From a virus: DNA of 37,793 nt. The notes below the pieces were generated by a model that saw nothing but the letters and a program-made list of their open reading frames with translations, was not told the DNA's origin and did not search any database. The stretch lies in IMG/VR virus record IMGVR_UViG_3300028584_000490, positions 1 to 37,793 of that record; one strand, given 5' to 3'. Every line of letters begins with the position of its first letter. The first letter of the stretch is position 1. Made by a program: the position numbers and the translations under genes. Shown piece by piece: positions 2,007 through 25,620 of the stretch.

Positions 2007-2408
2007 ATGTATGCACTAGGAAAAGTTGAACTTGCTATATCGGAACACGCTGTTACTCTAGGTATTCTAGTTAATAGCGTTGGGAAGATTGAGGGCTTTA
2101 TGGAAGAGTCCGTTAAAGGGCAAATGAGACAAGAAGTGCTACTAGAAAAACTCGCAAACTTTGAAGCGAATACTAAGACTAGCTTTGATCGTGCTCATGC
2201 AAGAATAGACAAATTGGAAGCCGACATTACACTAAAAGAAAAATCAATGCGTGACCATATTGAAAGTATTGAGCCTATGGCAACTAATGGTGATCGGGTT
2301 CATAGTGGAATAGTATTTACTGCAAAAGCGTTGAGTGGTTTAGTTTTAACGATGTTGTTTGGGTTGGTTATTTGGGCTATTCAAGCATCAAATTATAAGG
2401 GGCAATAA
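2007..2408 (+). CDS. Coiled-coil protein with C-terminal transmembrane helix (133 aa); possible lysis-associated membrane protein
   Basis: The C-terminal segment GIVFTAKALSGLVLTMLFGLVIWAIQA is a predicted TM helix. The gene abuts the endolysin gene (TAATG overlap). Confidence 0.5.
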   Translation: MYALGKVELAISEHAVTLGILVNSVGKIEGFMEESVKGQMRQEVLLEKLANFEANTKTSFDRAHARIDKLEADITLKEKSMRDHIESIEPMATNGDRVHSGIVFTAKALSGLVLTMLFGLVIWAIQASNYKGQ

Positions 2409-6830: not shown

Positions 6831-9800
6831 ATGGCTGATGTATGGTCACGACTCGGTATCAAACCCTATGAAGCCGATCCTAAAAAAGTAAAACTCACTC
6901 TCGAAGATGCTCCCAAGGTGGAAGCGAAGCCACAAGCACAAGATACGAGCCGTAGCATTGGTCAAATTATCCTCGATACCGATGCACAGTTTGGCCAGGG
7001 TGCCGGATCACTCGTGCAAACATTCGGAGATTTGGGGCAGCTTGCTACGGGTAATAAAAACTCTCTTCAATCGTATGGTCAAGAGGTCAAAGACTTCTAT
7101 GGCAATCTTCTCTCCCCTCAATACAAACAAGAAGGTAAAGACGTATCGGCTGCGATCAAAGCAAAAGATGGAGAGATCGCGCAAGCGGTTGAGGCTATCA
7201 AGCAATATGCTACACATCCCTCGCAGCTATCGGGTGCAATTGTAGGATCAATCCCGGCTATGGCTGCGGGCGGTGTCCCTGGTAAAGTGCTGGGATTGGG
7301 TGCTGGTGCATTGGGAATTGGAGCTACGGGGGTTACGCGTGCCTCTATCGGTGGGGCTGCTGCGGGTGAATCAGTAATACAAGGTGGTCAAACGGGGGGC
7401 GAAGTGCTACGCGGTGATTTGAATCAAGCTGCAAATTCCGATTGGACTCCTAAGTATTCCCAAGAAGAGATACTAGATCGTGCGCGTACTGCTGCGCTGG
7501 GTTCTGCTGCTACTACTGCCCTCACCTATGCGATCCCTGGATCAACAACAATCGAAAAAGCATTGTTGGGTGTTGAGAATAAAGTGGGAAGCCGCGCTGT
7601 TAATACGGCTAAGGGTTTTGCGGGTGAAATGGGTCAAGAGGGAATCCAGGGTGGTACAGGGCAAATGTCTCAAAACTATGCCGAAGATAAACCACTCACG
7701 CAAGGTGTCGGAGAGGTTACTGCAACGGGCGCTCTCATCGGTGGGATCATGGGTGGTGGTATGGGGTTTGCCAATAGCACATCCAGCGCACCACAAGCAG
7801 CCCCTAAAAAACCTAGTGAGACGATCAACGTCGAAGAGGAAGTAAAGAGCGAAGCAAAGAAGCAAGCTTACACCTGGGCTACGCAGCGTGAGGGCGAAGT
7901 ACGTCAAGAAGCAGCGCAAGCAAAGGCGCACGTCAATGAAATGCTCAATAACGGGTTAGATCCAAAGAGTGTACGTGCTACGCTGGATAATCTCATCACG
8001 CCAAGTGCAGCCGATGTGAAACTAACTCAACTGCTCAATGAGGGTACGATCCTACCCTCTAACATGACGGGTATGCGTATCGTGCCTCTCATTGAAGATA
8101 CGATACAAGCCTCTATCGATGCGCCGGAACTTGCCCGTACCAATCAAGAACTAGAATCGGTACTCAAACAAGCGGGCATGAGTAAACGTCTCACGCAGAT
8201 CATTACTGCTGCGTATGCTGCTAAAGATCCTCAAATACTCAAAGATCACATCCAAGAGACACTTGATGGTAATACGCATGAGTTTGTCGATCATGCACCG
8301 ATCCAAGAAGCGATCATGCAGCAAGTAGCACAGCTTGACGAACAACACGCGATACAAATGGAAGCTATCAAGCAGCAAGAGGAAGAACAAAAAGCTATCG
8401 AAACGCTATCAAATGATAGCGAAAGTGTAGCGGTTGAGCCGAAACAAGAAGAGGTAATTTTTAAGCCCGCACAAGGGAAGCGTGCAGTGCGCGGTGAATT
8501 GTTTGATCTACCTTTTGGATACAAAGGTGTTATTGTTAAGAACCAGGCGGGGGATGCTGCTGAACTGTATGAGTATTCCACGGGATCACGTTTGTCGGGG
8601 TATAGTGCTGGTACAAGCTGGAAGCTAGATGAGTCTATTGCCGAGGCGCGTAATAAAATGGAACGTACCGGGGAAGAAAAGCTCGCGCAGCATTTTGAAG
8701 AGATTAAAAATGATAGAGGTATCACTAACACTGAAATCGTTTATGCTAAAGCTCCTACTATTACCAAAGAGAAAGAACTTGTAACAATAGAATCATTTAA
8801 TCGAGATGGAATAGCAATTGAAGTAAGCGGAACACCAATTAAGCTTTCAAATAATATCAATGCTATTATCACTAAACGTGATGATGGTTGGCATATCACT
8901 GAATCTGATGTAGGCGCACCACTAGGCGGAGGCAAAACAAGAAAAGAGGCTATTGATGCTGTTAATAATTCTATTCAGAAAATAGGAATTGAAAAATATT
9001 CAACACTTATTGAAAAGAAAAGAAAAGAATATGACATATTTCGTCTCCCTATTGAGGAAGTAAAGCAGTTCTTTAATGGGATGGATGCTAATGAAAAGAT
9101 AGAGTTTTCAAAGTCATGGGGCAGCAATACGCCTGAATGGTGGGCAGATAAAAATTGGGATGATTTAAGAAGCGATCAGCACGATGCACTTAAAAGCGTA
9201 TATTTAGGTCATAATAGAAATAAGAGTGATACAATACTAGATGATACTAAAACAATATCAAAAGATACTAAAACAACACTAAAAGGGGTGAAAGATGAAG
9301 AAGTACAACCAATTCGAGGCAATGATGGCGCTGGAAGCGAAGATACCGGATCAACAACGGTACGACCTGATGAAGCAAGTAACCCAAGGGGAAGCGATGC
9401 TGCCCGCGATGGAGGCATCGATGGAGAGACGAAAGGCGCAAGCAATGTTGTCGGAGCAGTACGATCACCTAAATCGGATATTGGGAACAGTGGCGGGGAT
9501 GATGCAGTATCCCAAGGAACTGAGCCAATGGAACGATACGCAGCCCCTAGCAGTGATGATACAAACGCTGCCGGAGTTGGAATCGACACAGTGGTATCAA
9601 GCGGTGGTGAACAAAATCTTAACCTAGAGGGCAAAGATCCTATCATACTTACAAGAGGTCAGCGTAGAGATATAAACTACCAGGCAAAAGCCATTCTCGA
9701 AAAAGGTGCGCCATACAGCGAAGCCGACAAAGAGATCCTACGCCAATACACCGGAGAGGGCGGGTTGGTATCCTCTAAAGAATCTCTCACACAACACTAC

Positions 9801-12800
9801 ACACCGTATCAAACGATCAAAGCCATTTATAACGCTCTCGATGTTGCGGGGTTTGCTCCCAAAACTGCATTAGAGCCAGCGGTGGGAAGCGGGAATTTTG
9901 TCGGGTTTCGTCCTGATCTCGCGTGGACGACTATCGACATCGATAAAACCAATCACGAGGTTGTCAATGCGCTGTACCCAAAAGCCAATAACTATCATAA
10001 CGGGTTTGAAGAGTTTAAGGGCAAAGGGTTTGATCTCATCATCTCCAATGTACCGTTTCTCGAAGAGCGCGGCGCGGGACTGCTCAAAGATCGTAAAGAC
10101 ATTAAGATGCTGCACGATTACTATTTTGCAGCGGCTATGGATAAGGTCAATGATAATGGGATCGTGGCGTTTGTCACGTCCAAGGGGACTATGGATAAGT
10201 CCGATGGTGCTATTCGTAAAGAGGTAGTGAGTCGGGGCGATATTATCGGAGCGTATCGTTTGCCTAGTGGTACGTTTTCTAAAAATGCGCATACCGATGT
10301 TGTCACCGATGTGATCTTCATCCAAAAACGTCCGGAGGGTGTGGAGCCTAGAGAAGAGCGTGCGCGTGACAATGAGGCGTTTGTGTCCTCTACCAAAACA
10401 GCTGATGATATATACATGAATACCTATTTTCAAAACCATACGTCCAATATCCTGGGCGATGTTAAAGCGGGGATCGATAAAGCCTATGGCCGTCCCGCGT
10501 ATGAGATCACGGGTACACCGGATTACAGCCGCATGAAGATCGACTATGCAGCGTATGGGAAAGAGAACCAAAAAGATGCAGCCAATGAGACACAGACTAT
10601 CCCTACAAACAGCAAAGAGTTTAAACAGTATGCCCAAGATAACGCGATTGAGTACACCAGCCATAAAGGTAGTGGGATCGTTATCGATGGTAGCAATGTT
10701 TTAGCGCAGCGTGAAGTGGAGTTTTCGGACATCGATCAAAAGGCGTACTATTATGAGCCATTAACGGACAAGGGGTTGTCCGATAAGATCCTAGCCCTGG
10801 ATAAGATCGTAGCAGCGGGTGAGGCTAATAACCTCGAAGAGGGGACAAAGCTCATCGATGCCTACAAAGCAGCGTTTAAAACCCACCCTAAGAAAGATAA
10901 AGCCCTGGGCAAAGCATTGCGCGAAGCGGGGGAAGATCAGAAGGTGTATGAGTATGGTAGTTTGTTTAATGATAAGTTTATACCTAGTGATATATTCCGT
11001 GAGCAGACACGCTATACCGGAAGCGGTAAAGCAGATATAAGCGAATCATCCCCACTCAAAGAACGATTATTTTACTCCGAGAACAACGAGGGTAAGCTCA
11101 ATATCAGAACCTCAAAGCTCCTGGATATGGATGAGTTCGGGGATATGCTCAAAGATGATAACTATGCCTATATTGGAGAGTTTAGCGTACAAAACAAGAT
11201 CCTCTATTACAGCGGCAATATCTATGATAAGATCGATGAGATTACTAAGATCCGGGATCAAAATTTAGGGGTTAAAAAATACGATGATGCAATCAGTGAG
11301 AAGCTCGATCTTCAACTCAAAGCACTCGAAGCCATACTGCCTGAACCCAAGAAGGTGGATGAGATCGAGTTTAAGGGAATAGAGAAGTGGATCAGCGATG
11401 CGGGGATCGAGATCCCGTTTAAGATGGTCAAGAAAACAGAGAAGCTACGCGACAATGGCGGGACTAAGACAACAGAGGAATGGCAAAGCGGATACGGTAA
11501 TATTTTTGATAATTACCTAAACGGCAAGCAGCTTATCTCAGCAAAACAAGATGAGTCAATGGCCTCGTTTAAAAACCGTTTGCGCGAAGCACAGCAAGAA
11601 GTGGCAACGGTACAAGACAAGTATCGTGCCTGGCTGTCAAGCAAGGGGCATACTGAGGCGTTTGAGAAAGCCTATAACAAACGCTTTAACGGATACGTGC
11701 AGCCGGACTATCTCGCAGCCTCGTACCTGATCCAGGACACACTCGATGCGCTGCCAAAAGAACTCACACTGCGCAGCAATCAGATCCAATGGATCATGCA
11801 AGCATATTATGAGGGTAAGGGGATCAATGCGCATGATGTTGGGGGCGGTAAGACGTTGGCTGGGATCGTGTTGGCAAAAGTCCTCAAAGATAAAGGGGCT
11901 GCTACAAAGCCGATCTTTGTTGTGCCGTCCAAGGTTATCAAGAATTGGGTTAAAGAGATCAAGCGTGCCGTACCGGATGCGAAGATCGTGGATTTGGGGA
12001 GTCTCTCAAAAGATAAGCGCGAATCGATGCTGCACGATTTGGCAAACACCAATGCCGATTATGTGCTGATTTCAAAAGAGGGTTTCCAGGCGCTCAAACT
12101 GCCGCTGCAAAAAGAGATCGATTATGCAACGCAGCTGTTACGAGAGAATTTGCAAAACGATAACCTAACCGGACGTGCTGAACAAGTAGCCAATGAGAAA
12201 GTAGAGCGCTATTTGGCGGTACTAAGAACCGATAATAAAAACAAATCGATCACGATTGACAAGCTGGGGATCGATGCCGTGTTCGCCGATGAAGCACGCA
12301 GCTATAAAAATATTGGGGTTAGCAGTGATCTTGTCGGTAATAAGCTGGGTAAAGCGTTTAGCATGAAAGAGAACGAGAAAACTAAGACCGTAAGTATCGA
12401 CAGTGCTATGGCGTATGATTTTCGTTTTAAAACCCGCTACATCGCAGAGCGTAACAATGGGCGTAATGTATTCTTACTCGATGCAACACCTACACCAAAC
12501 AAGCCTATCGAGATCTTCACGATGCTCAAACACCTGGACAATAATATATTCGATGAGTATGGGATCACTACGGATCGTGATTTTGCTAATATGTTTTTTG
12601 AGTTTGGGATTAAGCCTACTAAGACGGGGGGCATGGATAAAGGGTTGATCGCGCTTAAAAATGCGTTTGGACTCAAAGGGATCATGAATCGCTACATCAA
12701 TCGAATCAGCATGGCAGATTTTGCCAGCCAAAAGATCATCGATCTACCCGAAGAGAAAGTGATTAACCACTACCTCGATCAAACCGATGAGGGCGATATA

Positions 12801-14111
12801 GTGTTTACGGATATTGCTAAACGTATGCAAGAAGCAAAAGCCGATAAAGAGAAACGTAAAGAGATACCAGGGATATTTAGCAACGGGATCACGGCAAGTG
12901 TCGATCCAAGATTGTATCAGCGTATGGGGATCACAGACATACTTGATCCTACACCGGATAATCATAAGATCGCCAAGGTGATCGATCTCGTTCTATCCAA
13001 ACGCGGCATCGATGCGAAGTCGGGGCAGATCATATTCCTAGACAGTGCCGGGCATACGGCAAGTGATACGAATGTAAAGGTAGATAAGACAACGGGAGTC
13101 GAGACTGTTTATGCTGCTACCCTGGAACAAAACCTACACCGTGATATGAAAGATAAGCTTATCGCTAGTGGCAAATATAAAGCTAATGAGATTGCTATCC
13201 TAAGTGGCCAGGAGATCACTGATCCAAGAACGGGTAAAGAGACGGGAGCTACGGGCGATAAAGCGCAGCAACTCAAGCAAGATATTGTTGATGCGTATGA
13301 TGCCGGGCAAGTTAAGGTAATCATCGGAACAACTAAGAGTGCGGGTGAGGGGATGAATATCCAAAAGTTTACGACGGATATTTACCACATCGATCTACCC
13401 TGGACGATTGCCGAAGTAATCCAGCGCAATGGGCGTGGGGTACGGTTTGGTAATCAAAACGCAAGTGTAAACCTACACTACTTTTTCCAGGCGGGGACGT
13501 TTGACTCTCTCATGTATAAAACAGTCATGAATAAAAAAGGATGGAATGAGGCGCTATGGGATACCAAAGTAGAGGATCGTATGGAAGTCGTGGACGAGGG
13601 TGGATCGATGCCAAGTCCAGCGGAGATCATGTTAGCTATGGAAAAAGATCCTATTAAGAGGAGACAATTAGAACTAGAGATCGAATACCAGCGCCTCAGT
13701 GATGAATATAACAATGTTACCGATGAAGTTAAAGCCATCGAGCGCAGAATATCAACCATAACAACAGAGCAGCGCGACGAGGGCAATAAGCAACGTGATC
13801 TCGAAGCACGTATGAAAGATCCAACGCCTACGCTAGAGCTGCGTGAGCTGCAAGAGAAGATGCACAAAGAGCCTAAGAAGTACAAAGCAAAGTTTGAGGA
13901 AGTCCAGGCGCGCGTTAAGAAGAGCCAAGAGGGTATGCACGCGCAACGTGTAGCTAAGATGGAGAATCTCAAGAAAGAAGAAGTGCGACGATACGAAGCA
14001 CTCAAAACAGCGAGAGAGAATCATACTAAAGTCGCGGGCGAACTAAGAGATTTTGAGGATAAGTACATGGATAACCGGGGTAATTTTATAGCTGAAGTGG
14101 AGTGTGCGTAA
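6831..14111 (+). CDS. Giant polyvalent protein (2426 aa): N-terminal glycine-zipper region, tandem small modules, acidic G/S/D disordered linker, N6-adenine DNA methyltransferase domain, SNF2/DEAD-type helicase domain, C-terminal coiled coil (P1 DarB-like architecture)
   Basis: Uninterrupted 7.3 kb ORF. MTase motif I EPAVGSGNFVG (nt ~9873) and motif IV DLIISNVPF (nt ~10044). Helicase motif I DVGGGKTLAG (nt ~11835), motif II FADEARSYKN (nt ~12288), motif III LLDATPTPN, motif V GTTKSAGEGMNIQ, and motif VI QRNGRGVRFGN (nt ~13422). Confidence 0.85.
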   Translation: MADVWSRLGIKPYEADPKKVKLTLEDAPKVEAKPQAQDTSRSIGQIILDTDAQFGQGAGSLVQTFGDLGQLATGNKNSLQSYGQEVKDFYGNLLSPQYKQEGKDVSAAIKAKDGEIAQAVEAIKQYATHPSQLSGAIVGSIPAMAAGGVPGKVLGLGAGALGIGATGVTRASIGGAAAGESVIQGGQTGGEVLRGDLNQAANSDWTPKYSQEEILDRARTAALGSAATTALTYAIPGSTTIEKALLGVENKVGSRAVNTAKGFAGEMGQEGIQGGTGQMSQNYAEDKPLTQGVGEVTATGALIGGIMGGGMGFANSTSSAPQAAPKKPSETINVEEEVKSEAKKQAYTWATQREGEVRQEAAQAKAHVNEMLNNGLDPKSVRATLDNLITPSAADVKLTQLLNEGTILPSNMTGMRIVPLIEDTIQASIDAPELARTNQELESVLKQAGMSKRLTQIITAAYAAKDPQILKDHIQETLDGNTHEFVDHAPIQEAIMQQVAQLDEQHAIQMEAIKQQEEEQKAIETLSNDSESVAVEPKQEEVIFKPAQGKRAVRGELFDLPFGYKGVIVKNQAGDAAELYEYSTGSRLSGYSAGTSWKLDESIAEARNKMERTGEEKLAQHFEEIKNDRGITNTEIVYAKAPTITKEKELVTIESFNRDGIAIEVSGTPIKLSNNINAIITKRDDGWHITESDVGAPLGGGKTRKEAIDAVNNSIQKIGIEKYSTLIEKKRKEYDIFRLPIEEVKQFFNGMDANEKIEFSKSWGSNTPEWWADKNWDDLRSDQHDALKSVYLGHNRNKSDTILDDTKTISKDTKTTLKGVKDEEVQPIRGNDGAGSEDTGSTTVRPDEASNPRGSDAARDGGIDGETKGASNVVGAVRSPKSDIGNSGGDDAVSQGTEPMERYAAPSSDDTNAAGVGIDTVVSSGGEQNLNLEGKDPIILTRGQRRDINYQAKAILEKGAPYSEADKEILRQYTGEGGLVSSKESLTQHYTPYQTIKAIYNALDVAGFAPKTALEPAVGSGNFVGFRPDLAWTTIDIDKTNHEVVNALYPKANNYHNGFEEFKGKGFDLIISNVPFLEERGAGLLKDRKDIKMLHDYYFAAAMDKVNDNGIVAFVTSKGTMDKSDGAIRKEVVSRGDIIGAYRLPSGTFSKNAHTDVVTDVIFIQKRPEGVEPREERARDNEAFVSSTKTADDIYMNTYFQNHTSNILGDVKAGIDKAYGRPAYEITGTPDYSRMKIDYAAYGKENQKDAANETQTIPTNSKEFKQYAQDNAIEYTSHKGSGIVIDGSNVLAQREVEFSDIDQKAYYYEPLTDKGLSDKILALDKIVAAGEANNLEEGTKLIDAYKAAFKTHPKKDKALGKALREAGEDQKVYEYGSLFNDKFIPSDIFREQTRYTGSGKADISESSPLKERLFYSENNEGKLNIRTSKLLDMDEFGDMLKDDNYAYIGEFSVQNKILYYSGNIYDKIDEITKIRDQNLGVKKYDDAISEKLDLQLKALEAILPEPKKVDEIEFKGIEKWISDAGIEIPFKMVKKTEKLRDNGGTKTTEEWQSGYGNIFDNYLNGKQLISAKQDESMASFKNRLREAQQEVATVQDKYRAWLSSKGHTEAFEKAYNKRFNGYVQPDYLAASYLIQDTLDALPKELTLRSNQIQWIMQAYYEGKGINAHDVGGGKTLAGIVLAKVLKDKGAATKPIFVVPSKVIKNWVKEIKRAVPDAKIVDLGSLSKDKRESMLHDLANTNADYVLISKEGFQALKLPLQKEIDYATQLLRENLQNDNLTGRAEQVANEKVERYLAVLRTDNKNKSITIDKLGIDAVFADEARSYKNIGVSSDLVGNKLGKAFSMKENEKTKTVSIDSAMAYDFRFKTRYIAERNNGRNVFLLDATPTPNKPIEIFTMLKHLDNNIFDEYGITTDRDFANMFFEFGIKPTKTGGMDKGLIALKNAFGLKGIMNRYINRISMADFASQKIIDLPEEKVINHYLDQTDEGDIVFTDIAKRMQEAKADKEKRKEIPGIFSNGITASVDPRLYQRMGITDILDPTPDNHKIAKVIDLVLSKRGIDAKSGQIIFLDSAGHTASDTNVKVDKTTGVETVYAATLEQNLHRDMKDKLIASGKYKANEIAILSGQEITDPRTGKETGATGDKAQQLKQDIVDAYDAGQVKVIIGTTKSAGEGMNIQKFTTDIYHIDLPWTIAEVIQRNGRGVRFGNQNASVNLHYFFQAGTFDSLMYKTVMNKKGWNEALWDTKVEDRMEVVDEGGSMPSPAEIMLAMEKDPIKRRQLELEIEYQRLSDEYNNVTDEVKAIERRISTITTEQRDEGNKQRDLEARMKDPTPTLELRELQEKMHKEPKKYKAKFEEVQARVKKSQEGMHAQRVAKMENLKKEEVRRYEALKTARENHTKVAGELRDFEDKYMDNRGNFIAEVECA

Positions 14112-19474: not shown

Positions 19475-19714
19475 TTATTTCTTTGGGGTATTTCGTTTAT
19501 CTTCTGATGGGAGGACTTGTTTTGCTGATCCGTCAGGGTTGTAGATTACCTTTATATCATCGGTGAATTTCATTCGTACCATTGTCCCTAAAAACTCCTG
19601 AAACACTTCACCCGTATCATCATTGATAATGGTAAAGCGTTCAGAATCTTTTACATAGACCCATTTCGCGTTGGCGCTTACTATGATCAGTGCTGCTAAT
19701 ATAATTTTTTTCAT
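19475..19714 (-). CDS. Small exported protein (79 aa, Sec signal peptide)
   Basis: MKKIILAALIIVSANA then KW (AxA cleavage-like site). ATGA overlap with the repressor stop. Confidence 0.6.
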   Translation of the reverse strand: MKKIILAALIIVSANAKWVYVKDSERFTIINDDTGEVFQEFLGTMVRMKFTDDIKVIYNPDGSAKQVLPSEDKRNTPKK

Positions 19715-20361
19715 CCGTGATACTCCATTGTGTAGATTACTTGCCCTAATATTTCTATCTCATCTTTTTTAATATTAAATTGTGGGTAGTCGGGGTTATC
19801 ACTTTTTACGATCAACCCATTATGGGCTACAAATAGCCGTTTAACAAAGATCTCATCGTTCATGCGGATAATAAAAATTTTGCCGTTTTTAATTTCGTGT
19901 TGGAGCTTATCAACGAAGATCATATCTCCATCGTTTAGGGTTTGGTTCATACTATCACCACTTACTTTTATCGCTTCAATAAGCTTGGAAGAGGTGCGTG
20001 GCAATAGGTTGTGATCCACAAAGATCATATCATACTCACAATGATCCCCATTAAGACATCCAAATCCAGCTGATGCAGATATATCCTGGAAAAGTTTTAC
20101 TGCAATTTTTCCTACTGGCGCATCATCTCCAAGATTTAGGCGAGGGGAGATCTTCATCTCACCCAACCCATAGAAGATATATTCTAAATTTGCATCTGTA
20201 TCACGCAAATTATTGACTATTGCTTCATGAGGGATAGCATTTCTTCTTTTTCTCTCGTAAATATTTGCTGCTGTTAATCCAATAATTTGTGCTATTTCTT
20301 TGTCATCTGTAACTTTAAAAAAAGTTTTTAAGCGCAATAGCACATTATTTATGTCATTCAA
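19711..20361 (-). CDS. CI/LexA-like phage repressor (HTH + S24 peptidase autocleavage domain)
   Basis: N-terminal HTH (KEIAQIIGLTAANIYERKRRNAIP). S24 catalytic Ser in VSGDSMNQTL and Lys in EIFVKRL. It is divergent from an XRE gene. Confidence 0.85.
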   Translation of the reverse strand: MNDINNVLLRLKTFFKVTDDKEIAQIIGLTAANIYERKRRNAIPHEAIVNNLRDTDANLEYIFYGLGEMKISPRLNLGDDAPVGKIAVKLFQDISASAGFGCLNGDHCEYDMIFVDHNLLPRTSSKLIEAIKVSGDSMNQTLNDGDMIFVDKLQHEIKNGKIFIIRMNDEIFVKRLFVAHNGLIVKSDNPDYPQFNIKKDEIEILGQVIYTMEYHG

Positions 20362-20689: not shown

Positions 20690-21063
20690 GTCAAAAATAC
20701 GTATCAGTCAATTATGTTATGGATCGGGATGATCGTACCCGTAAGTATTTTGAGAACATGATGCGCTCTAAGCATAATCATGGGCGGGTGATCCAGGAGA
20801 ATGGGAAACTGATGGTGGATGCTAATTATGACGTTGGTATGCAGCATGAGATCTATGATCTGTATATGCAAGCGGAGCATTTAGCAAAAAATACCCATAA
20901 GCTCGCGGTGTATCTCTCTCGTTATCTCTCCGGTGATGAAGTCAATGCGTTGTATCTGTATTTGCGCTATGCGTCGTTCAAACATTTTGAGAGAGCAAAG
21001 CTGGTGAAGGAATTATTGCTTCGCTTTATTTGCGAAAATTCTCTTTTTGGAGTGCAAGCGTGA
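20686..21063 (+). CDS. Hypothetical early protein (125 aa) immediately upstream of the TGTTGCGGC repeat array
   Basis: ATGA overlap with cro. No family recognised. Its position suggests a regulator or origin-binding role, but that is inference only. Confidence 0.5.
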   Translation: MSQKYVSVNYVMDRDDRTRKYFENMMRSKHNHGRVIQENGKLMVDANYDVGMQHEIYDLYMQAEHLAKNTHKLAVYLSRYLSGDEVNALYLYLRYASFKHFERAKLVKELLLRFICENSLFGVQA

Positions 21064-21112
21064 GTCTCCTGGCTACCACCGCGCGATCGTTTGCACTGCC
21101 AAAAGGGAATTT

Positions 21113-21350
21113 TGTTGCGGCTGTTGCGGCATTTGTTGCGGCACTGTTGCGGCTTGACCTCCCTATTTTGGGCAAGTGTAGCTATGTTGCGGCTGTTGCG
21201 GAACTTTCCGTGTATATATGTGCGCATAGGGGCGCGCAGGCGCGGTAGGTACATATCGTGCCGCAACATAGCAACACATAGCTACACCTCCCTTGTGTAC
21301 GCTGTTGCTACCCTATCTTTTATTTTTCTTTAAGTCGCAACATAGCAACA
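21113..21350. repeat. Iteron-like array: TGTTGCGGC x6 direct (21113, 21122, 21134, 21145, 21185, 21194) plus inverted copies (GCCGCAACA 21260; GCAACA at 21271, 21337, 21345), followed by an AT-rich tract
   Basis: Read directly. Copies 1-4 are spaced 9-12 nt apart. The direct and inverted sets flank a TATATATG / GC-rich palindromic centre (ggggcgcgcaggcgcgg). An A/T-rich stretch at 21320-21400 follows. Confidence 0.8.
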
Positions 21351-21576
21351 AAGAAAAATTTAAGAAAAGAACTTAAAAAAAGCAAAGAGATTTTAAACTT
21401 CCTATTGGGAAAGGCTCTTTGCTCTTGCGATGAAGTTTGCAAAGAACTAACGCTACACGTAGTGGTTGGTCGTTTGGAGATTTCACAAACCAAAGGAGTT
21501 GTTCATGACAACCAAAGAGAAAAAGAAACTACGGGCAAAACGAAAAGCTCGAACGCAAATGAAAGGGGAATAGATT

Positions 21577-21885
21577 ATGGAGTTAGTCGGTGGTAGATCT
21601 AGCGGGATGAGTGTTTTTGAAAAAGCAAGGGCGGTATCGTTTGTGCCGTATGCTGAGTCGTTTTTGGGGGTGGTGTTTACCGACATCCATAGCCCTAAGT
21701 GTTTGTGTCCGTTTCACGATGATGGTGATCCTAGCTTTAGCGTGAGTTTGAAAATAAATAAGGGAAAGTGTTTCTCGTGCATGGAGCGCGGGCGTATGGT
21801 GGACATCATCGAGTTTACGGCAACGATCGTGGGGTGCAGTCCTAAAGAAGCAGCGGAAAAGATTTGTGAGGATTTGGCATTATGA
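21577..21885 (+). CDS. Stand-alone DnaG-type primase zinc-binding domain (zf-CHC2, 102 aa)
   Basis: CLCPFHDDGDPSFSVSLKINKGKCFSCMERG is the CHC2 zinc-ribbon signature of bacterial and phage primases. Confidence 0.8.
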   Translation: MELVGGRSSGMSVFEKARAVSFVPYAESFLGVVFTDIHSPKCLCPFHDDGDPSFSVSLKINKGKCFSCMERGRMVDIIEFTATIVGCSPKEAAEKICEDLAL

Positions 21886-22469
21886 GAGTTCTTAATCTAT
21901 ACGCTGGAATTGGCGGGAATAGAAAACTATGGGGGGGGGACATTCAAGTGACTGCCGTTGAATTCGATCCATCCATTGCAGAAGCATATAAAGATCGTTA
22001 TCCAAATGATACTGTAATTGTTGGATGCGCTCAAAAATATCTTTTGGAAAATTATAGAAACTTTGATTTTATATGGGCATCCCCTCCATGCCAATCTCAT
22101 AGCACTATCATAAACTCACAATACACGAGAGATAACTACAACGCAAAATTGCCTGATATGTCACTCTATCAAATAATTTTATTTTTACAAGGTCATGGCA
22201 GAAAAATTAAATGGGTTGTAGAAAATGTAATCCCATATTATGAACCTCTTATAAAACCGACTTCAAAAATTGATAGACACTTGTACTGGTCAAACTTTGA
22301 TATTCCTAGTATTGATGTTGAGAAAAAACATATTATTAAATTTGTTACGATTGACACACTAAAAGATTTTGATATTTCAAAGTATTCAGGAATAAAAAAT
22401 AAACGACAAGTTATCAGAAACCAAGTTGATTACCAAGTAGGCGCATATATTTTTGGATGTGCTCTATGA
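21882..22469 (+). CDS. Compact DNA cytosine-5 methyltransferase-like protein (195 aa, minimal target-recognition region)
   Basis: Motif I LNLYAGIGG. Motif II TAVEFD. Motif IV ASPPCQSHS (catalytic Cys). Motif VI WVVENV. R-containing DRHLYWSNF. C-terminal RNQVDYQVGAYIF resembles motif X. Only about 35-40 residues lie between motif VIII and the C-terminal motifs. The gene is AT-rich relative to its neighbours. Confidence 0.7.
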   Translation: MRVLNLYAGIGGNRKLWGGDIQVTAVEFDPSIAEAYKDRYPNDTVIVGCAQKYLLENYRNFDFIWASPPCQSHSTIINSQYTRDNYNAKLPDMSLYQIILFLQGHGRKIKWVVENVIPYYEPLIKPTSKIDRHLYWSNFDIPSIDVEKKHIIKFVTIDTLKDFDISKYSGIKNKRQVIRNQVDYQVGAYIFGCAL

Positions 22470-25123
22470 CTGAGGCGCAAAAGAATTATCATGAGCGGCA
22501 GGCGGCGATGGAGGCTGCGAAGTTGGTATCCGAGCAAACGAGTATCGAGGTGGGATCGAAGTGTCGGGATGAGTATCTCAAGGATCAAGAGGGTTTGACG
22601 TGGATGCTGGAGCATAACCCTAAAAAGGTGCAAGAGTTTTTTCCGTTTTTGATGGATGCTCCTAAAGAGATTGCGCAGTGTGCGATCAAGCAGATCGGAT
22701 GGGTGCGGTATCACGACTCTATTTCGGTTATCAATCATTACCAAGGGGTTTTTAACTATCGCAAGGTACGTGAAAAATATGCGTTTGCCCGTGATGAAGA
22801 TGGATCGTTGCTGCGCGATGAGCAAGGGCATTTTATTAAGACCGGACGCGCAAAAGGTAAATGGATCGCTGGGCGTGGTGAGGCTACGGGTAAACCGTAT
22901 CCGCTGGAACTGTTCGAGATGGTCGATGATTTTGGTACAGTGGTCGTGTGTGAGGGTGAAAAAGATGCACTGAATCTTAATCTCTATGGCGTACCCGCTT
23001 TGACGCTTGGTGGTGTTGGTGAACGATGGGAGCCTCATAGTGAAGTTTTGCGCAGCCGCAACGTAATCCTATGGCATGACAACGATGCTGCGGGTGTCGG
23101 TGCGTCTGAGCGTGCGTTGGAAGTGTTGAGCAGTGTGTGTGAATCGGTGATGATCGTGGACTGGCGACGGCTGGATCCTAATGCTGCCAATAAAGCGGAT
23201 GTTACGGACTACTTGATCAATATCGGGCATATCGGGGCGGATGCGTTGTTGCGACGTTTGAAGAATAGCCGATACATGGTAAGCGTGACAAAAAAATGGG
23301 AGGATGTAGCGCACATGATGTTTTGCTCGTTACAGCCATTGCATTATGAGCGTGACGAAGAGCTGGGTGAGATGATGAAGATCTTTATCGATGCTCTCAA
23401 AAACGATAAAGAGTCCAATGCGTATAACAAGATCATGGATCGTGCGCATGGATTACTCAACAAATACCCTGAAAAAGCGGAAGCAGTGCGCCTCTCACGA
23501 CTCCCAGCCCCAAGCGAAGATGAAAAAGAGAAACTAGCAGAGTATGAAAAGATGCGTATCAAAGGGGTAGAACTCCTAGAGACAGCGTGTGAGGATGCGG
23601 TGTTGTATGAGTATTTTTCCAAGACGTTTATGGGGGAGATGCGCAAGCACGTAACAAGCGATGTCGTACTGCACTGGGATGAGTCATTTCGTGCGGTTGG
23701 GGTTGATTTTGTCCGTAATGGAAATGCGTATCTGTATTGGTGCGGGACACATTACAATCAAGCTACTGATACCCAGGTGAAAAATACCTTTAACCGATTT
23801 TTGGAGATGGCACGTATCAATCTCAAACAGCGTCTCAACTACGGGACGTTTAAACGTCCGGCGATGGACTCAATCCTGGATAATGCTTATTTTATCGATG
23901 ATGTTCAAACAAAGTGGGAGAAACACGCGGTGATCAACCACCAAGGTGGGACGATCCTCATCGATGAAGTGGGGAACGTGCAGCATAAAGCGCATGAGCG
24001 TGATGATTTTATGACCTATGTGCTGCCGTACAAATACGATCCTAGTGCCAAGATGCCCAAATGGCAGAAGTTTTTGGATCGTGTGATCCCTGATGAGTCT
24101 GTGCAGATGGTGTTACAAGAGTATGCCGGGTATTTGTTCAGTCCGTCGTATCTCCAAAAGTTTATCTTTTTGTACGGGATGGGGGCAAATGGTAAATCGG
24201 TGTTTATCAAAGTTCTTGCGTCACTGTTTGATGATGCCAATGTATCGTATCTCAAAGTCCAGGATATGTTCGACCACAACCTCGACGTTCTCAACGGTAA
24301 AAAACTCAACATCTCCAGCGAGCTGTCTGGAAATGCTACGCAAAAAGGGCAGATTGAAACCATCAAAGAGATCGCGGAGGGTGCGACTATCACGGTGAAC
24401 CCGAAGCATGAGAAGCCGTACAAAATCTATAACCCGCCAAAGCTGATGATGAGTGCAAATACGAAGCTCACGGGTGGTGGTCAAAACGACGGTCTGATCC
24501 GTCGTCTCATCATGATCCCGTTTGAGGTTCAGATCCCTGAGAAAGAGCGTAACAGCAATCTCCATAATGAGATCATCGAAGAGGAGATGAGTGGGGTGCT
24601 GAATTGGGCGGTTGAGGGGTTGATCCGTTTGACAAAAAACAAAGGGCAATTTACCCAAAGTGCAATCCTGGATCAAGTGACCGAAGAGTACCGCGAAGAG
24701 ACAGATCAAGTGTATAGCTATATCAAAGAGTGTTTTGGACAGTACGAAACAGCAGTGAATGAAGATGCTGTGCGACGTGTCCATGATGTCGCGTTGATAT
24801 ACAGTGAAAAAGCGGTGATGAGTACGAAGTATCTCTATATGCACTATCAGTTGTGGGCAAAAGAGAACGGTGTGTATGAGATGAAGCAGCAAAACTTTAC
24901 GAGCAAGCTGGCTGAAAAACTCAAAACAAAGTCGATCGATAAGCGGGTAAAAATCCTCAATGTTACGAAAGGATATGCAGCGGGTGAGCCTATGGTGCAA
25001 AGCTATGAATCAAAAGTAGTGAAATGTATCGTCGGGTTTAGGATCAATGGTGATATTAAAATCAGTGTAAACGGATTGAATGTATCGATGATGGAAACTA
25101 TACAACAAGGAGAAGAGTCATGA
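22466..25123 (+). CDS. Primase (Toprim) fused to a P4/D5-type replicative helicase (885 aa)
   Basis: Toprim motifs VVVCEGEKDALNL and ILWHDNDAAGV. P4/D5-family Walker A LYGMGANGKSVF and a C-terminal D5-like region. ATG 22466 forms an ATGA overlap with the MTase stop. Confidence 0.85.
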   Translation: MTEAQKNYHERQAAMEAAKLVSEQTSIEVGSKCRDEYLKDQEGLTWMLEHNPKKVQEFFPFLMDAPKEIAQCAIKQIGWVRYHDSISVINHYQGVFNYRKVREKYAFARDEDGSLLRDEQGHFIKTGRAKGKWIAGRGEATGKPYPLELFEMVDDFGTVVVCEGEKDALNLNLYGVPALTLGGVGERWEPHSEVLRSRNVILWHDNDAAGVGASERALEVLSSVCESVMIVDWRRLDPNAANKADVTDYLINIGHIGADALLRRLKNSRYMVSVTKKWEDVAHMMFCSLQPLHYERDEELGEMMKIFIDALKNDKESNAYNKIMDRAHGLLNKYPEKAEAVRLSRLPAPSEDEKEKLAEYEKMRIKGVELLETACEDAVLYEYFSKTFMGEMRKHVTSDVVLHWDESFRAVGVDFVRNGNAYLYWCGTHYNQATDTQVKNTFNRFLEMARINLKQRLNYGTFKRPAMDSILDNAYFIDDVQTKWEKHAVINHQGGTILIDEVGNVQHKAHERDDFMTYVLPYKYDPSAKMPKWQKFLDRVIPDESVQMVLQEYAGYLFSPSYLQKFIFLYGMGANGKSVFIKVLASLFDDANVSYLKVQDMFDHNLDVLNGKKLNISSELSGNATQKGQIETIKEIAEGATITVNPKHEKPYKIYNPPKLMMSANTKLTGGGQNDGLIRRLIMIPFEVQIPEKERNSNLHNEIIEEEMSGVLNWAVEGLIRLTKNKGQFTQSAILDQVTEEYREETDQVYSYIKECFGQYETAVNEDAVRRVHDVALIYSEKAVMSTKYLYMHYQLWAKENGVYEMKQQNFTSKLAEKLKTKSIDKRVKILNVTKGYAAGEPMVQSYESKVVKCIVGFRINGDIKISVNGLNVSMMETIQQGEES

Positions 25124-25620
25124 AAATCGGACACGTACAAAAACGAAGTTATAAAGCGGGTGAAGAGGTCAAGAGTTATTTGGAGATGATCGTGCGTCCT
25201 CCTATGATGGAGAGTGCTACGTTTACTGTTTCAGTGAACAAAGATAAGGTCAATGCTAATGAGCCGGATTTTAATATTTGGTACTCGTTTAATCGCAAGG
25301 GTGAGAAATATCCGTCTACTAAGGTGGGGGCATTGTGGAACAAGGTGAGCGATAAGGGGACAGAGTATAAAAATGGCTCAATCGAATGTCCGGCAGTACC
25401 AGGTGGGAAACTCAATATTTCTGTTTTTGCCACAAAGGTCAAAGAGGGTGAGGAGATCGATTGGTCGCACGATGTTTTGTGGTCTCCTCCAAGAGCGCAA
25501 GAGTCGGGAGGATATAGCGATGGCGGTTATGCTGCGCCCTATACTGGGAAGCCTATTGTTGAGATGGTCGATGCAAACGGGAATGTCGAAGTGATCCCCG
25601 AAGATGAAATCCCATTTTAG
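25120..25620 (+). CDS. DUF736-like protein with SSB-type acidic C-terminal tip (166 aa)
   Basis: IGHV...NEPDFNIW...VGALWNKVSDKGTEYKNGSIECPAVPGGKLNISVF...WSHDVLWSPPRAQE matches my recollection of the DUF736 pattern (IG.F...NAPDYRI...GAAWKK.S..G..Y.S...DP......A.L...W.RP). A Gly/Tyr-rich linker follows, then the terminal PEDEIPF, like the SSB DDDIPF tip. Confidence 0.55.
   Translation: MKIGHVQKRSYKAGEEVKSYLEMIVRPPMMESATFTVSVNKDKVNANEPDFNIWYSFNRKGEKYPSTKVGALWNKVSDKGTEYKNGSIECPAVPGGKLNISVFATKVKEGEEIDWSHDVLWSPPRAQESGGYSDGGYAAPYTGKPIVEMVDANGNVEVIPEDEIPF

Follow-up and report, generated by a model that had tools for sequence, protein, structure and literature searches.

Primases of the DnaG/T7 type carry a zinc-binding domain (ZBD) and a Toprim module, and work on T7 gp4 and DnaG has shown that this domain is able to serve an adjacent subunit in trans. 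C5-cytosine methylases of the M.HhaI type (M.HhaI, M.HaeIII, and Dcm; Pfam family PF00145) are proteins of 320-450 amino acids (aa) with a common fold and a fixed order of motifs, I (GIGG), IV (Pro-Cys), and VI (ENV), and they have a target-recognition domain (TRD) of 80-100 residues as well as motif IX. The smallest TRD among the characterised C5 methylases is that of DNMT3A/B, enzymes that rely on oligomer interfaces and on regulatory domains to read CpG, and M.AquI is divided into two subunits, alpha with motifs I-VIII and beta with motifs IX-X. Here, we describe a locus in which a primase and a C5 methylase are interleaved. It lies in IMG/VR virus record IMGVR_UViG_3300028584_000490, a complete contig of 37,793 nucleotides (nt) from a temperate phage of the Campylobacterota, which is referred to as “the window” in its full length. 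A ZBD gene, a gene for a 195-aa C5-methyltransferase-type protein, and a gene for an 885-aa Toprim-helicase protein follow one another there (Table 1).

An earlier note on this DNA, made from its letters alone, proposed that a horizontally acquired methylase had been inserted into a once-contiguous primase gene and had split it. From related loci, we argue that the methylase is indeed a foreign gene; the simplest reading of the sequences is that the two-gene primase is ancestral to its clade and that the insertions came later.

The divided primase and its seam

The three open reading frames (ORFs), their sizes, and both ATGA overlaps given in the earlier note were all confirmed. The ORFs stand in series and are joined by 4-nt overlaps, the arrangement of translational coupling. 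The first product is, judged from its sequence, the predicted small subunit of a two-gene primase. In the 885-aa ORF, Pfam finds Toprim_2 (PF13155), D5_N (PF08706), a DUF5906 superfamily 3 (SF3) P-loop domain (PF19263), and Pox_D5 (PF03288), with PHROG matches besides; the ORF also contains the invariant blocks EGEKDA and GxGxNGKS. In other words, the full set of a DnaG/T7-type primase with an SF3 helicase (CHC2 zinc ribbon, Toprim, D5_N, and SF3 P-loop helicase) is encoded, in two ORFs. The ZBD and Toprim module are common to T7 and DnaG, and D5_N with the SF3 helicase to P4 alpha and poxvirus D5, whereas the window's clade differs from the T7 gp4 type in that the ZBD is a separate, translationally coupled polypeptide. 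Because the ZBD acts in trans in T7 gp4 and DnaG, it is plausible, by analogy, that the separate ZBD and Toprim-helicase chains form a working two-chain primase.

We scanned 190 related loci with profiles of the window ZBD and of an alignment of the window's primase homologues. The relatives were drawn from genomes and metagenomes of Campylobacterota, among them Campylobacter concisus, Sulfurimonas, Sulfurospirillum, and Arcobacteraceae. The clade of the window primase comprises 13 lineages, and the percentages below are primase identities to that of the window. In all 13, the ZBD has an ORF of its own, 91-106 aa long, and in none of them do the ZBD and the catalytic domain share a chain. The close homologues of the 885-aa protein, from 78% down to 47% identity, are all 885-909 aa long and without PF01807; among the homologues of this protein, a ZBD is present only in a 975-aa, 28%-identical relative. 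Fusion is confined to the outgroup, where a form of ~970 aa occurs in more than 100 distant loci (~28-30% identity), prophages of Campylobacter concisus, Sulfurospirillum, and Arcobacteraceae. The unsplit ZBD-Toprim-helicase gene that the earlier note suggested seeking therefore exists in more distant relatives, but in none of the window's clade. In the fused proteins, the ZBD occupies residues ~12-95 and residue 3 of the window primase aligns at ~108, right after the ZBD, so that the split falls exactly in the linker behind this domain.

Seven lineages of the clade have an empty seam: in L005 (78%), L184 (71%), L191 (61%), L088 (52%), L183 (47%), L194 (38%), and L091 (33%), the ZBD and primase genes abut through an (A/G)TGA overlap. 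Relatives with a separate ZBD and no inserted gene were named beforehand in the earlier note as the observation to set against its own proposal, and all seven lineages are of this kind; they contradict the idea that insertion of the methylase split the primase gene. The fused architecture of the distant relatives would fit a contiguous ZBD-Toprim-helicase gene cut by this very insertion, and so would the position of a clearly foreign methylase exactly at the domain boundary. However, seven lineages of the same clade are split without an insert, including the nearest one, the right junction of the window is identical in sequence to the uninterrupted two-gene junction of L005, and unrelated cargos occupy the same point in other lineages. 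We regard a primase gene cut by this methylase as very improbable.

In a neighbour-joining tree, the nearest relative is insert-free in each of three cases, the window (whose nearest relative is L005), L006/L087, and L182, and the two basal lineages of the clade, L091 and L194, are insert-free too. The placement in the tree, together with the empty relatives, suggests that the split came first and was followed by at least five independent insertions into the seam. A different course would be that an earlier cargo in the ancestor of the clade caused the split, the empty relatives being secondary precise deletions and the present cargos having been swapped in. The slot has been reused repeatedly (five cargos), and an insertion is a simple route to a stop/start pair in the linker. 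Such a history, however, needs at least four to five independent precise deletions, each restoring the (A/G)TGA overlap; the basal L091 and L194 are empty, as is a neighbour of three insert-bearing lineages, and no remnant of a cargo is seen at the empty junctions. We consider it unlikely. An origin of the split from a homing endonuclease or an intein was rejected, because no HNH, GIY-YIG, or LAGLIDADG endonuclease domain and no intein domain was found in the intervening ORF, whose matches are limited to PF00145 and methylase PHROGs. No other plus-strand ORF of at least 50 aa lies inside the intervening gene.

The sequences of the relatives indicate that the overlap of the ZBD and primase genes is a recurrent docking slot for accessory genes. 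It holds five unrelated cargo sets (Table 1), three of which include DNA methylases, and the ATGA overlaps are kept at nearly all cargo joints across the relatives. The 93-aa and 150-aa ORFs of L007 and the 78-aa ORF of L192 have no match in Pfam, NCBIfam, or PHROG, and the 134-aa ORF of L182 has only a weak, sub-threshold match to HTH_17 in Pfam. The 276-aa methylase ORF of L007 overlaps an alternative upstream start of the primase ORF. The possibility that the 195-aa methylase belongs to a truncation series of the 340-aa methylase in L006/L087 was rejected: phmmer finds no match between them, and hhalign gives a probability of 36% with an alignment that goes wrong after motif IV. Since no relatedness is detectable beyond motifs I-IV, the two methylases are independent acquisitions.

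In its deviant foreign genes, fixed position, and varying cargos, the slot resembles phage moron or accessory-gene hotspots and T4-like genes split by free-standing mobile genes. It differs from them in that the window insert has no evident homing endonuclease, integrase, or own promoter/terminator, in that the cargo is stitched in by start/stop overlaps within an operon, between the two halves of one enzyme, and in that the split would not be the work of the cargo. It should be added that a conserved DUF736 gene lies 3' of the primase in L005, L006, L183, L184, L191, and L192, and that variable small genes are also found there, among them Lockin in L184 and, in L192, a Tad2-like gene with a possible anti-defence role. 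The early operon as a whole seems to gather counter-defence cargo.

The limits of the window insert can be read by comparison. The undisrupted ZBD|primase junction of L005 reads ggtctATGActgaggcgcaa. The right-hand sequence gctctATGActgaggcgcaa after the methylase in the window is the same as in L005, and ctATGActgaggcgcaa at the right junction is identical to that of L005's intact junction. The left joint is a second ttATGA. The methylase genes of L003, L001, and L004 are similar to the window gene at the nucleotide level from the ATG to ...GGATGTGCT, just before CTATGA. The acquired low-G+C cargo extends from ~21882 to 22462, and the final codon and the stop are part of the resident junction. 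These limits of similarity indicate that the acquired piece is essentially one ORF without signals of its own. No plus-strand terminator was found between the three genes, and the counts of a consensus scan for a promoter of the insert lay within or near the shuffle expectation; an independent promoter or terminator is thus unsupported. We infer selection for unbroken translational coupling of the primase operon, and microhomology exchange at such junctions may contribute. At the 3' crossover, the window copy lost the C-terminal tail of its family, and it ends 13 residues after RNQV, with ...YIFGCAL.

The methylase gene has 33.2% G+C and a third-position G+C fraction (GC3) of 0.235, its neighbours 47.2% and 46.5% with GC3 0.52-0.53, and its G+C content lies within the lowest 2% of the contig's 588-nt windows. 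The counts in the earlier note (19 G+C in the 60 nt at 22141-22200 and 35 at 22501-22560) are exact. Methylase homologues of 75-78% identity sit in unrelated phage neighbourhoods, none of them adjoining a primase; no constant partner gene accompanies the methylase across its various contexts, and some relatives adjoin N4/N6 DNA methylases in phage replication modules. Composition, the homologues away from primases, and the exact limits of similarity all bear out the horizontal acquisition of the methylase.

Table 1. Positions of the features discussed, in the window unless a related locus is named
Feature	Position	Strand	Remarks
ZBD gene, 102 aa	21577-21885	+	stand-alone DnaG/T7-type CHC2 zinc-binding domain; Pfam PF01807 Zn_ribbon_DnaG, E 2.9e-10; PHROG “DNA primase” families
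C5-methyltransferase-type gene, 195 aa	21882-22469	+	PF00145, 31.6 bits
Large primase subunit	22457/22466-25123	+	885 aa from the ATG overlapping the upstream stop (22466); 888 aa from the first ATG (22457)
Left junction ATGA	21882-21885	+	methylase start over ZBD stop; reads ttATGAgag
Right junction ATGA	22466-22469	+	primase-helicase start over methylase stop; reads ctATGActg
Slot cargo, window			195-aa C5 methylase
Slot cargo, L006/L087	L006:3982-5008, L087:326-1352		340-aa C5 methylase
Slot cargo, L007	L007:1067-2624		93-aa and 150-aa ORFs; 276-aa D12-class (Dam-like) N6-adenine methylase, PF02086, E 3.8e-25
Slot cargo, L192			YopX and 78-aa ORF
Slot cargo, L182			134-aa ORF
Other dual-frame methylase loci	L180:1497-2411, L181:1497-2244, L186:1497-2229, L187:1497-2237, L188:1497-2366, L189:1497-2184, L190:1497-2204
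Methylases with visible tail	L001:6001-6615, L003:6001-6627, L004:6001-6621
Lockin gene, L184	L184:5215-5577		3' of primase
Tad2-like gene, L192	L192:8106-8390		3' of primase
Iteron-like array	21113-21342		in the 510-bp non-coding region directly 5' of the ZBD gene
CI-like S24 repressor	19711-20361	-
DarB-like anti-restriction methylase/helicase, 2426-aa ORF	6831-14111	+	PHROGs DarB-like anti-restriction protein, DNA methyltransferase, helicase, E down to 5e-138
PAPS-reductase-like protein, 261 aa	28041-28826	+	phrog_424, E 5e-40; just 5' of large terminase
Very-low-GC3 ORFs	46-759, 770-1168, 2007-2408	+	GC3 0.20-0.28 vs ~0.45-0.53 for most genes

A minimal C5-methyltransferase family

Motifs I, IV, and VI of the earlier note are present, as LYAGIGG, SPPCQ, and VENV, and they fall in invariant columns of a 75-sequence family alignment. 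Invariant in this alignment are G11, G12, N13, and R14 of motif I (LNLYAGIGGNR), S67, P68, and C70 of motif IV (SPPCQ), E114, N115, and V116 of motif VI, and also E27 and Q176; all 31 invariant family residues are kept in the window protein. An AlphaFold2 model (predicted local distance difference test, pLDDT, 91; predicted template modelling score, pTM, 0.88) shows a complete methyltransferase sheet of seven strands, a hairpin of strands 6 and 7, and helices at the C-terminus. In the model, motif I follows strand 1, motif IV stands after strand 4 and before a low-confidence flexible loop, as in known enzymes, and motif VI lies at the end of strand 5. Candidate variants of motif VIII (canonically QxRxR; here DRHLYW, with R132 and H133 invariant, on the strand 6-7 hairpin) and of motif X (canonically GNxV; here RNQV, with N180 and V182 invariant, before the C-terminal helix) were assigned by their position in the model and not by a profile match; a profile comparison with another methylase family misaligned after motif IV. 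The beta-hairpin with the putative motif VIII and the C-terminal helix after a putative Asn-x-Val variant of motif X may be further likenesses to the M.HhaI type. By contrast, where that type has its TRD and motif IX, the window protein has only ~35 residues (138-173) to connect the hairpin with its C-terminal helices, most of them in coil, so the structure model agrees with the description “almost no TRD”. The description “unusually small” holds against C5 enzymes of the usual length but not within the protein's own family, in which ~195-210 aa is normal. Unlike either subunit of M.AquI, the window protein has the N-terminal motifs and a putative equivalent of motif X in one chain; M.AquI is nevertheless a precedent for a divided C5 function, which bears on whether a core without a TRD needs a partner.

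Comparison with M.HhaI-type enzymes gives a PF00145 match above threshold (31.6 bits against a gathering score of 22, over residues 1-86 only) and Foldseek probabilities of 1.0 to DNMT3A/B, DNMT2, M.HaeIII, M.HhaI, and DNMT1. The best full-length Foldseek matches are the DNMT3A/B catalytic domains, with query-normalised TM-scores of 0.55-0.63, the others being partial; at only 14-17% identity, DNMT3A/DNMT3B serve as a working analogy, not as evidence of membership. Alignment, model, and Foldseek together support the earlier description of a TRD-minimal protein of the C5-methyltransferase type. We file it as a TRD-minimal variant of a C5 DNA methylase, which passes Pfam and fails on the TRD and motif IX and on the NCBIfam equivalog-level cut-off.

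It has to be asked whether the 195-aa protein methylates DNA at all, or acts on RNA in the manner of DNMT2 (for example, on a tRNA targeted by host anticodon nucleases) or on another pyrimidine substrate. Among solved structures, sequence alone matches DNMT2 and M.HaeIII over motifs I-VI, the DNMT2 tRNA methylases being the best (family profile E 4e-9, vs 1e-3 for M.HaeIII), and no DNA-recognition domain is recognisable. However, (i) the DNMT2 matches stop at query residues 90-124, in motifs I-VI, which are common to all C5 methylases; (ii) the region of the DNMT2-specific TRD is absent from the window protein; (iii) the best full-length structural matches are DNA methylase domains, those of DNMT3; (iv) members of the family are fused to DNA-binding ParB_N/HTH modules, and many have clamp-binding-like tails; and (v) relatives lie beside N4/N6 DNA methylases, and DNA methylases recur in the cargo sets. 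A substrate other than DNA seems quite unlikely to us.

The family itself is large. A word-indexed search returned at least 8000 candidates, the best of which are 190-225 aa long and in some cases titled “DNA cytosine methyltransferase” (Campylobacterales, Sulfurimonas, Malaciobacter). In an exhaustive search, 174 clusters (50% identity) matched with E <= 1e-30, and the number rose to 563 at E <= 1e-10, mostly of 190-230 aa. Cultured carriers are Flavobacterium, Gordonia, and Vibrio phages and a Nitrosopumilaceae spindle-shaped virus. Our literature search found no study of this methylase family or of clamp-binding methylases; Burke et al. 2021 (PMC8256090) deals with other phage C5 methylases.

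Many members end in a short tail. Among 112 close members of the family, 55 have a Q..[LMI]F motif within 8 residues of the C-terminus, where shuffled tails would give 0.4; KQGGLF is an example, and the tails are visible in L001, L003, and L004 (Table 1). Among divergent cluster representatives, the strict motif occurs in the last 14 residues of 15 out of 109, compared with 23 of 2058 internal windows, and many more end in QxxLL-type variants. In sequence, the QxxLF tail resembles a sliding-clamp-binding motif; that of the bacterial beta clamp is reportedly QL[SD]LF, as Dalrymple and colleagues had it in 2001. Other members carry N-terminal ParB_N and helix-turn-helix (HTH) modules (P0175, P0220, and P0278), and the same core recurs, at 37-45% identity, in the viral BFVD entries H9YTL8 (359 aa) and H9YQD4 (521 aa), so the core looks like a module that has been combined with different DNA-engaging devices. 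One could go further and picture the family as TRD-free C5 cores tethered to moving replication or partition machinery, by the tail, by ParB/HTH modules, or here by co-translation with the primase, and methylating nascent phage DNA almost or wholly irrespective of sequence. This would be a viral counterpart of PCNA-tethered DNMT1, if true; we offer it as a speculation to which we give rather little weight.

The window protein has no QxxLF-like terminal pentapeptide. The inserted gene might then be an inactive remnant, TRD-less, truncated at its tail, and passively carried: ~10-17 C-terminal residues are missing, including the QxxLF of the nearest homologues, and there is no TRD. But the ORF is intact with its 31 invariant residues all in place, nonsynonymous divergence from homologues (dN 0.16-0.27) is far below the saturated synonymous divergence (dS), about half of the family is naturally tailless, and the TRD-minimal form of ~200 aa is the norm over at least 174 divergent clusters. 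The gene is, as judged from these rates, under purifying selection, and low dN beside saturated dS gives the window protein the look of a working enzyme, one of a minimal type that has been conserved, rather than of a broken Dcm. A passively carried remnant is therefore improbable in our view.

Two open frames in the methylase of L006/L087

The methylase gene in the slot of L006/L087 is of a different kind. Over its 1023 bp, two fully open frames of 340 codons run 4 nt apart. Frame A has motifs I, IV, VI, VIII, and X and matches PF00145 (E 2e-33) and phrog_363, and frame B matches phrog_1008, “DNA methyltransferase” (E 1.5e-20), and no Pfam family. We found eight genes with this dual-frame arrangement (the others are listed in Table 1), in phages of Campylobacterota, Acinetobacter, Salmonella, Pseudomonas, Ralstonia, Vibrio, and Microcystis and in a freshwater virome; Salmonella phage S9-5 and Acinetobacter phage ABMM1 are two of the carriers. 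Seven of the eight begin (A/G)TGAATGAG(C/T)TGG, with the start of the +1 frame 4 nt later (ATGAATG); in the Microcystis phage, the frame B ATG is conserved, no frame A start stands at the homologous position, and the annotated coding sequence begins 9 nt upstream. Both frames are open to ~20 nt from each other's ends in all eight.

This family of phage C5-methylase genes appears to be dual-coding, based on the following sequence observations: (i) from the frame B start to the last few codons of frame A, no stops are seen in the +1 frame, against 3.7-9.5 predicted from synonymous shuffles that preserve frame A, a depletion with P <= 0.02 in seven of the eight genes, and the +2 frame is not depleted; (ii) at identical four-fold codons, third positions are 51% identical across very divergent dual-frame phages; (iii) a C-terminal EWLMGWPxGWT...DKFQ block of frame B resembles motif IX and, when the two alignments are compared by eye, shows stronger conservation than the frame A residues that it overlaps; and (iv) frame B has 2497 database protein matches, those listed being mostly 240-380 aa long and without a Pfam domain. 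GenBank records annotate frame A in some cases and frame B in others. An AlphaFold2 pLDDT of 46 for frame B argues against a folded independent protein. As a hypothesis built on these sequences, a catalytic core and a recognition subunit would be encoded in overlapping frames, and the divided M.AquI offers a precedent here as well. Our literature search found no paper on overlapping frames in methylase genes.

The cassette in the life of the phage

Taken together, we consider it probable that an ancestral two-gene primase provided a slot at its seam, that a foreign, TRD-minimal C5 methylase cassette entered this slot, and that the enzyme methylates replicating phage DNA as an anti-restriction measure. 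An ancestral split in the linker after the ZBD would have left two translationally coupled primase genes. An ORF-sized cassette from a low-G+C donor would then have entered the 4-nt overlap, with ATGA kept on both sides and the C-terminal tail stripped at the 3' crossover. Because of these overlaps on both sides, the methylase would be made alongside the primase subunits from the early/replication operon, with primase expression unbroken. The 195-aa protein, whose methylation activity is presumed from its sequence and model, would use S-adenosylmethionine to methylate cytosines at C5 in replicating phage DNA, within a short or degenerate recognition site, and the benefit would be protection against the many restriction systems of the hosts. 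Such a benefit fits the presence of a DarB-like protein in the same phage and of methylases in three of the five slot cargos. The suggestion of the earlier note that a short site or nascent DNA is methylated in self-protection is plausible on sequence grounds.

Several points weigh against this reading. The tree, for which the fused forms supply the root, was built from simple distances among 16 sequences, and several lineages of the clade are sampled only as short metagenomic contigs; an early cargo that caused the split and was then lost is conceivable, unlikely as we have called it. On the side of the enzyme, the TIGR00675 score is 26.6 bits against a cut-off of 100.65, Pfam and TIGR00675 cover motifs I-IV only, the sequence matches to solved structures are led by DNMT2, and the loss of the tail could leave the window copy impaired. 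Finally, our literature search found no measured activity, substrate, or site for any member of the family.

The rest of the phage supplies some context. The DarB-like protein of 2426 aa is a second, far larger function of the anti-restriction type, and the other products of the window include a Cro-like HTH protein, a terminase, a portal, and major head proteins, besides the CI-like repressor (Table 1). The PAPS-reductase-like gene, with 35.5% G+C, lies below its neighbours in composition and may have a DNA-modification or auxiliary role. The very-low-GC3 ORFs suggest additional acquired genes in a mosaic genome. The iteron-like array consists of TGTTGCGGC in six direct copies (one of them mismatched) and two inverted ones, and an AT-rich tract comes after it at ~21315-21400; contig-wide, there are six exact matches to TGTTGCGGC, every one inside the array, which is probably a replication origin or an operator of the primase operon. 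A megablast search of 21000-25500 against 50,697 phage records gave no match, so that no cultured close relative is known.

These observations correct an appealing story, since the methylase did not break the primase. Instead, the seam of a two-gene primase in Campylobacterota phages takes up accessory genes, often DNA methylases, with the operon undisturbed. The minimal C5 methylase in the window stands for a very large family that extends over phages of Bacteroidota, Actinomycetota, Proteobacteria, and Campylobacterota and an archaeal virus. How such a protein finds its target without a recognition domain is a directly testable question, on which specific hypotheses can be built from the clamp-binding-like tail and from the fusions to ParB, and a 195-aa cytosine methylase with a short site or no specificity, if true, would be useful as a tool.

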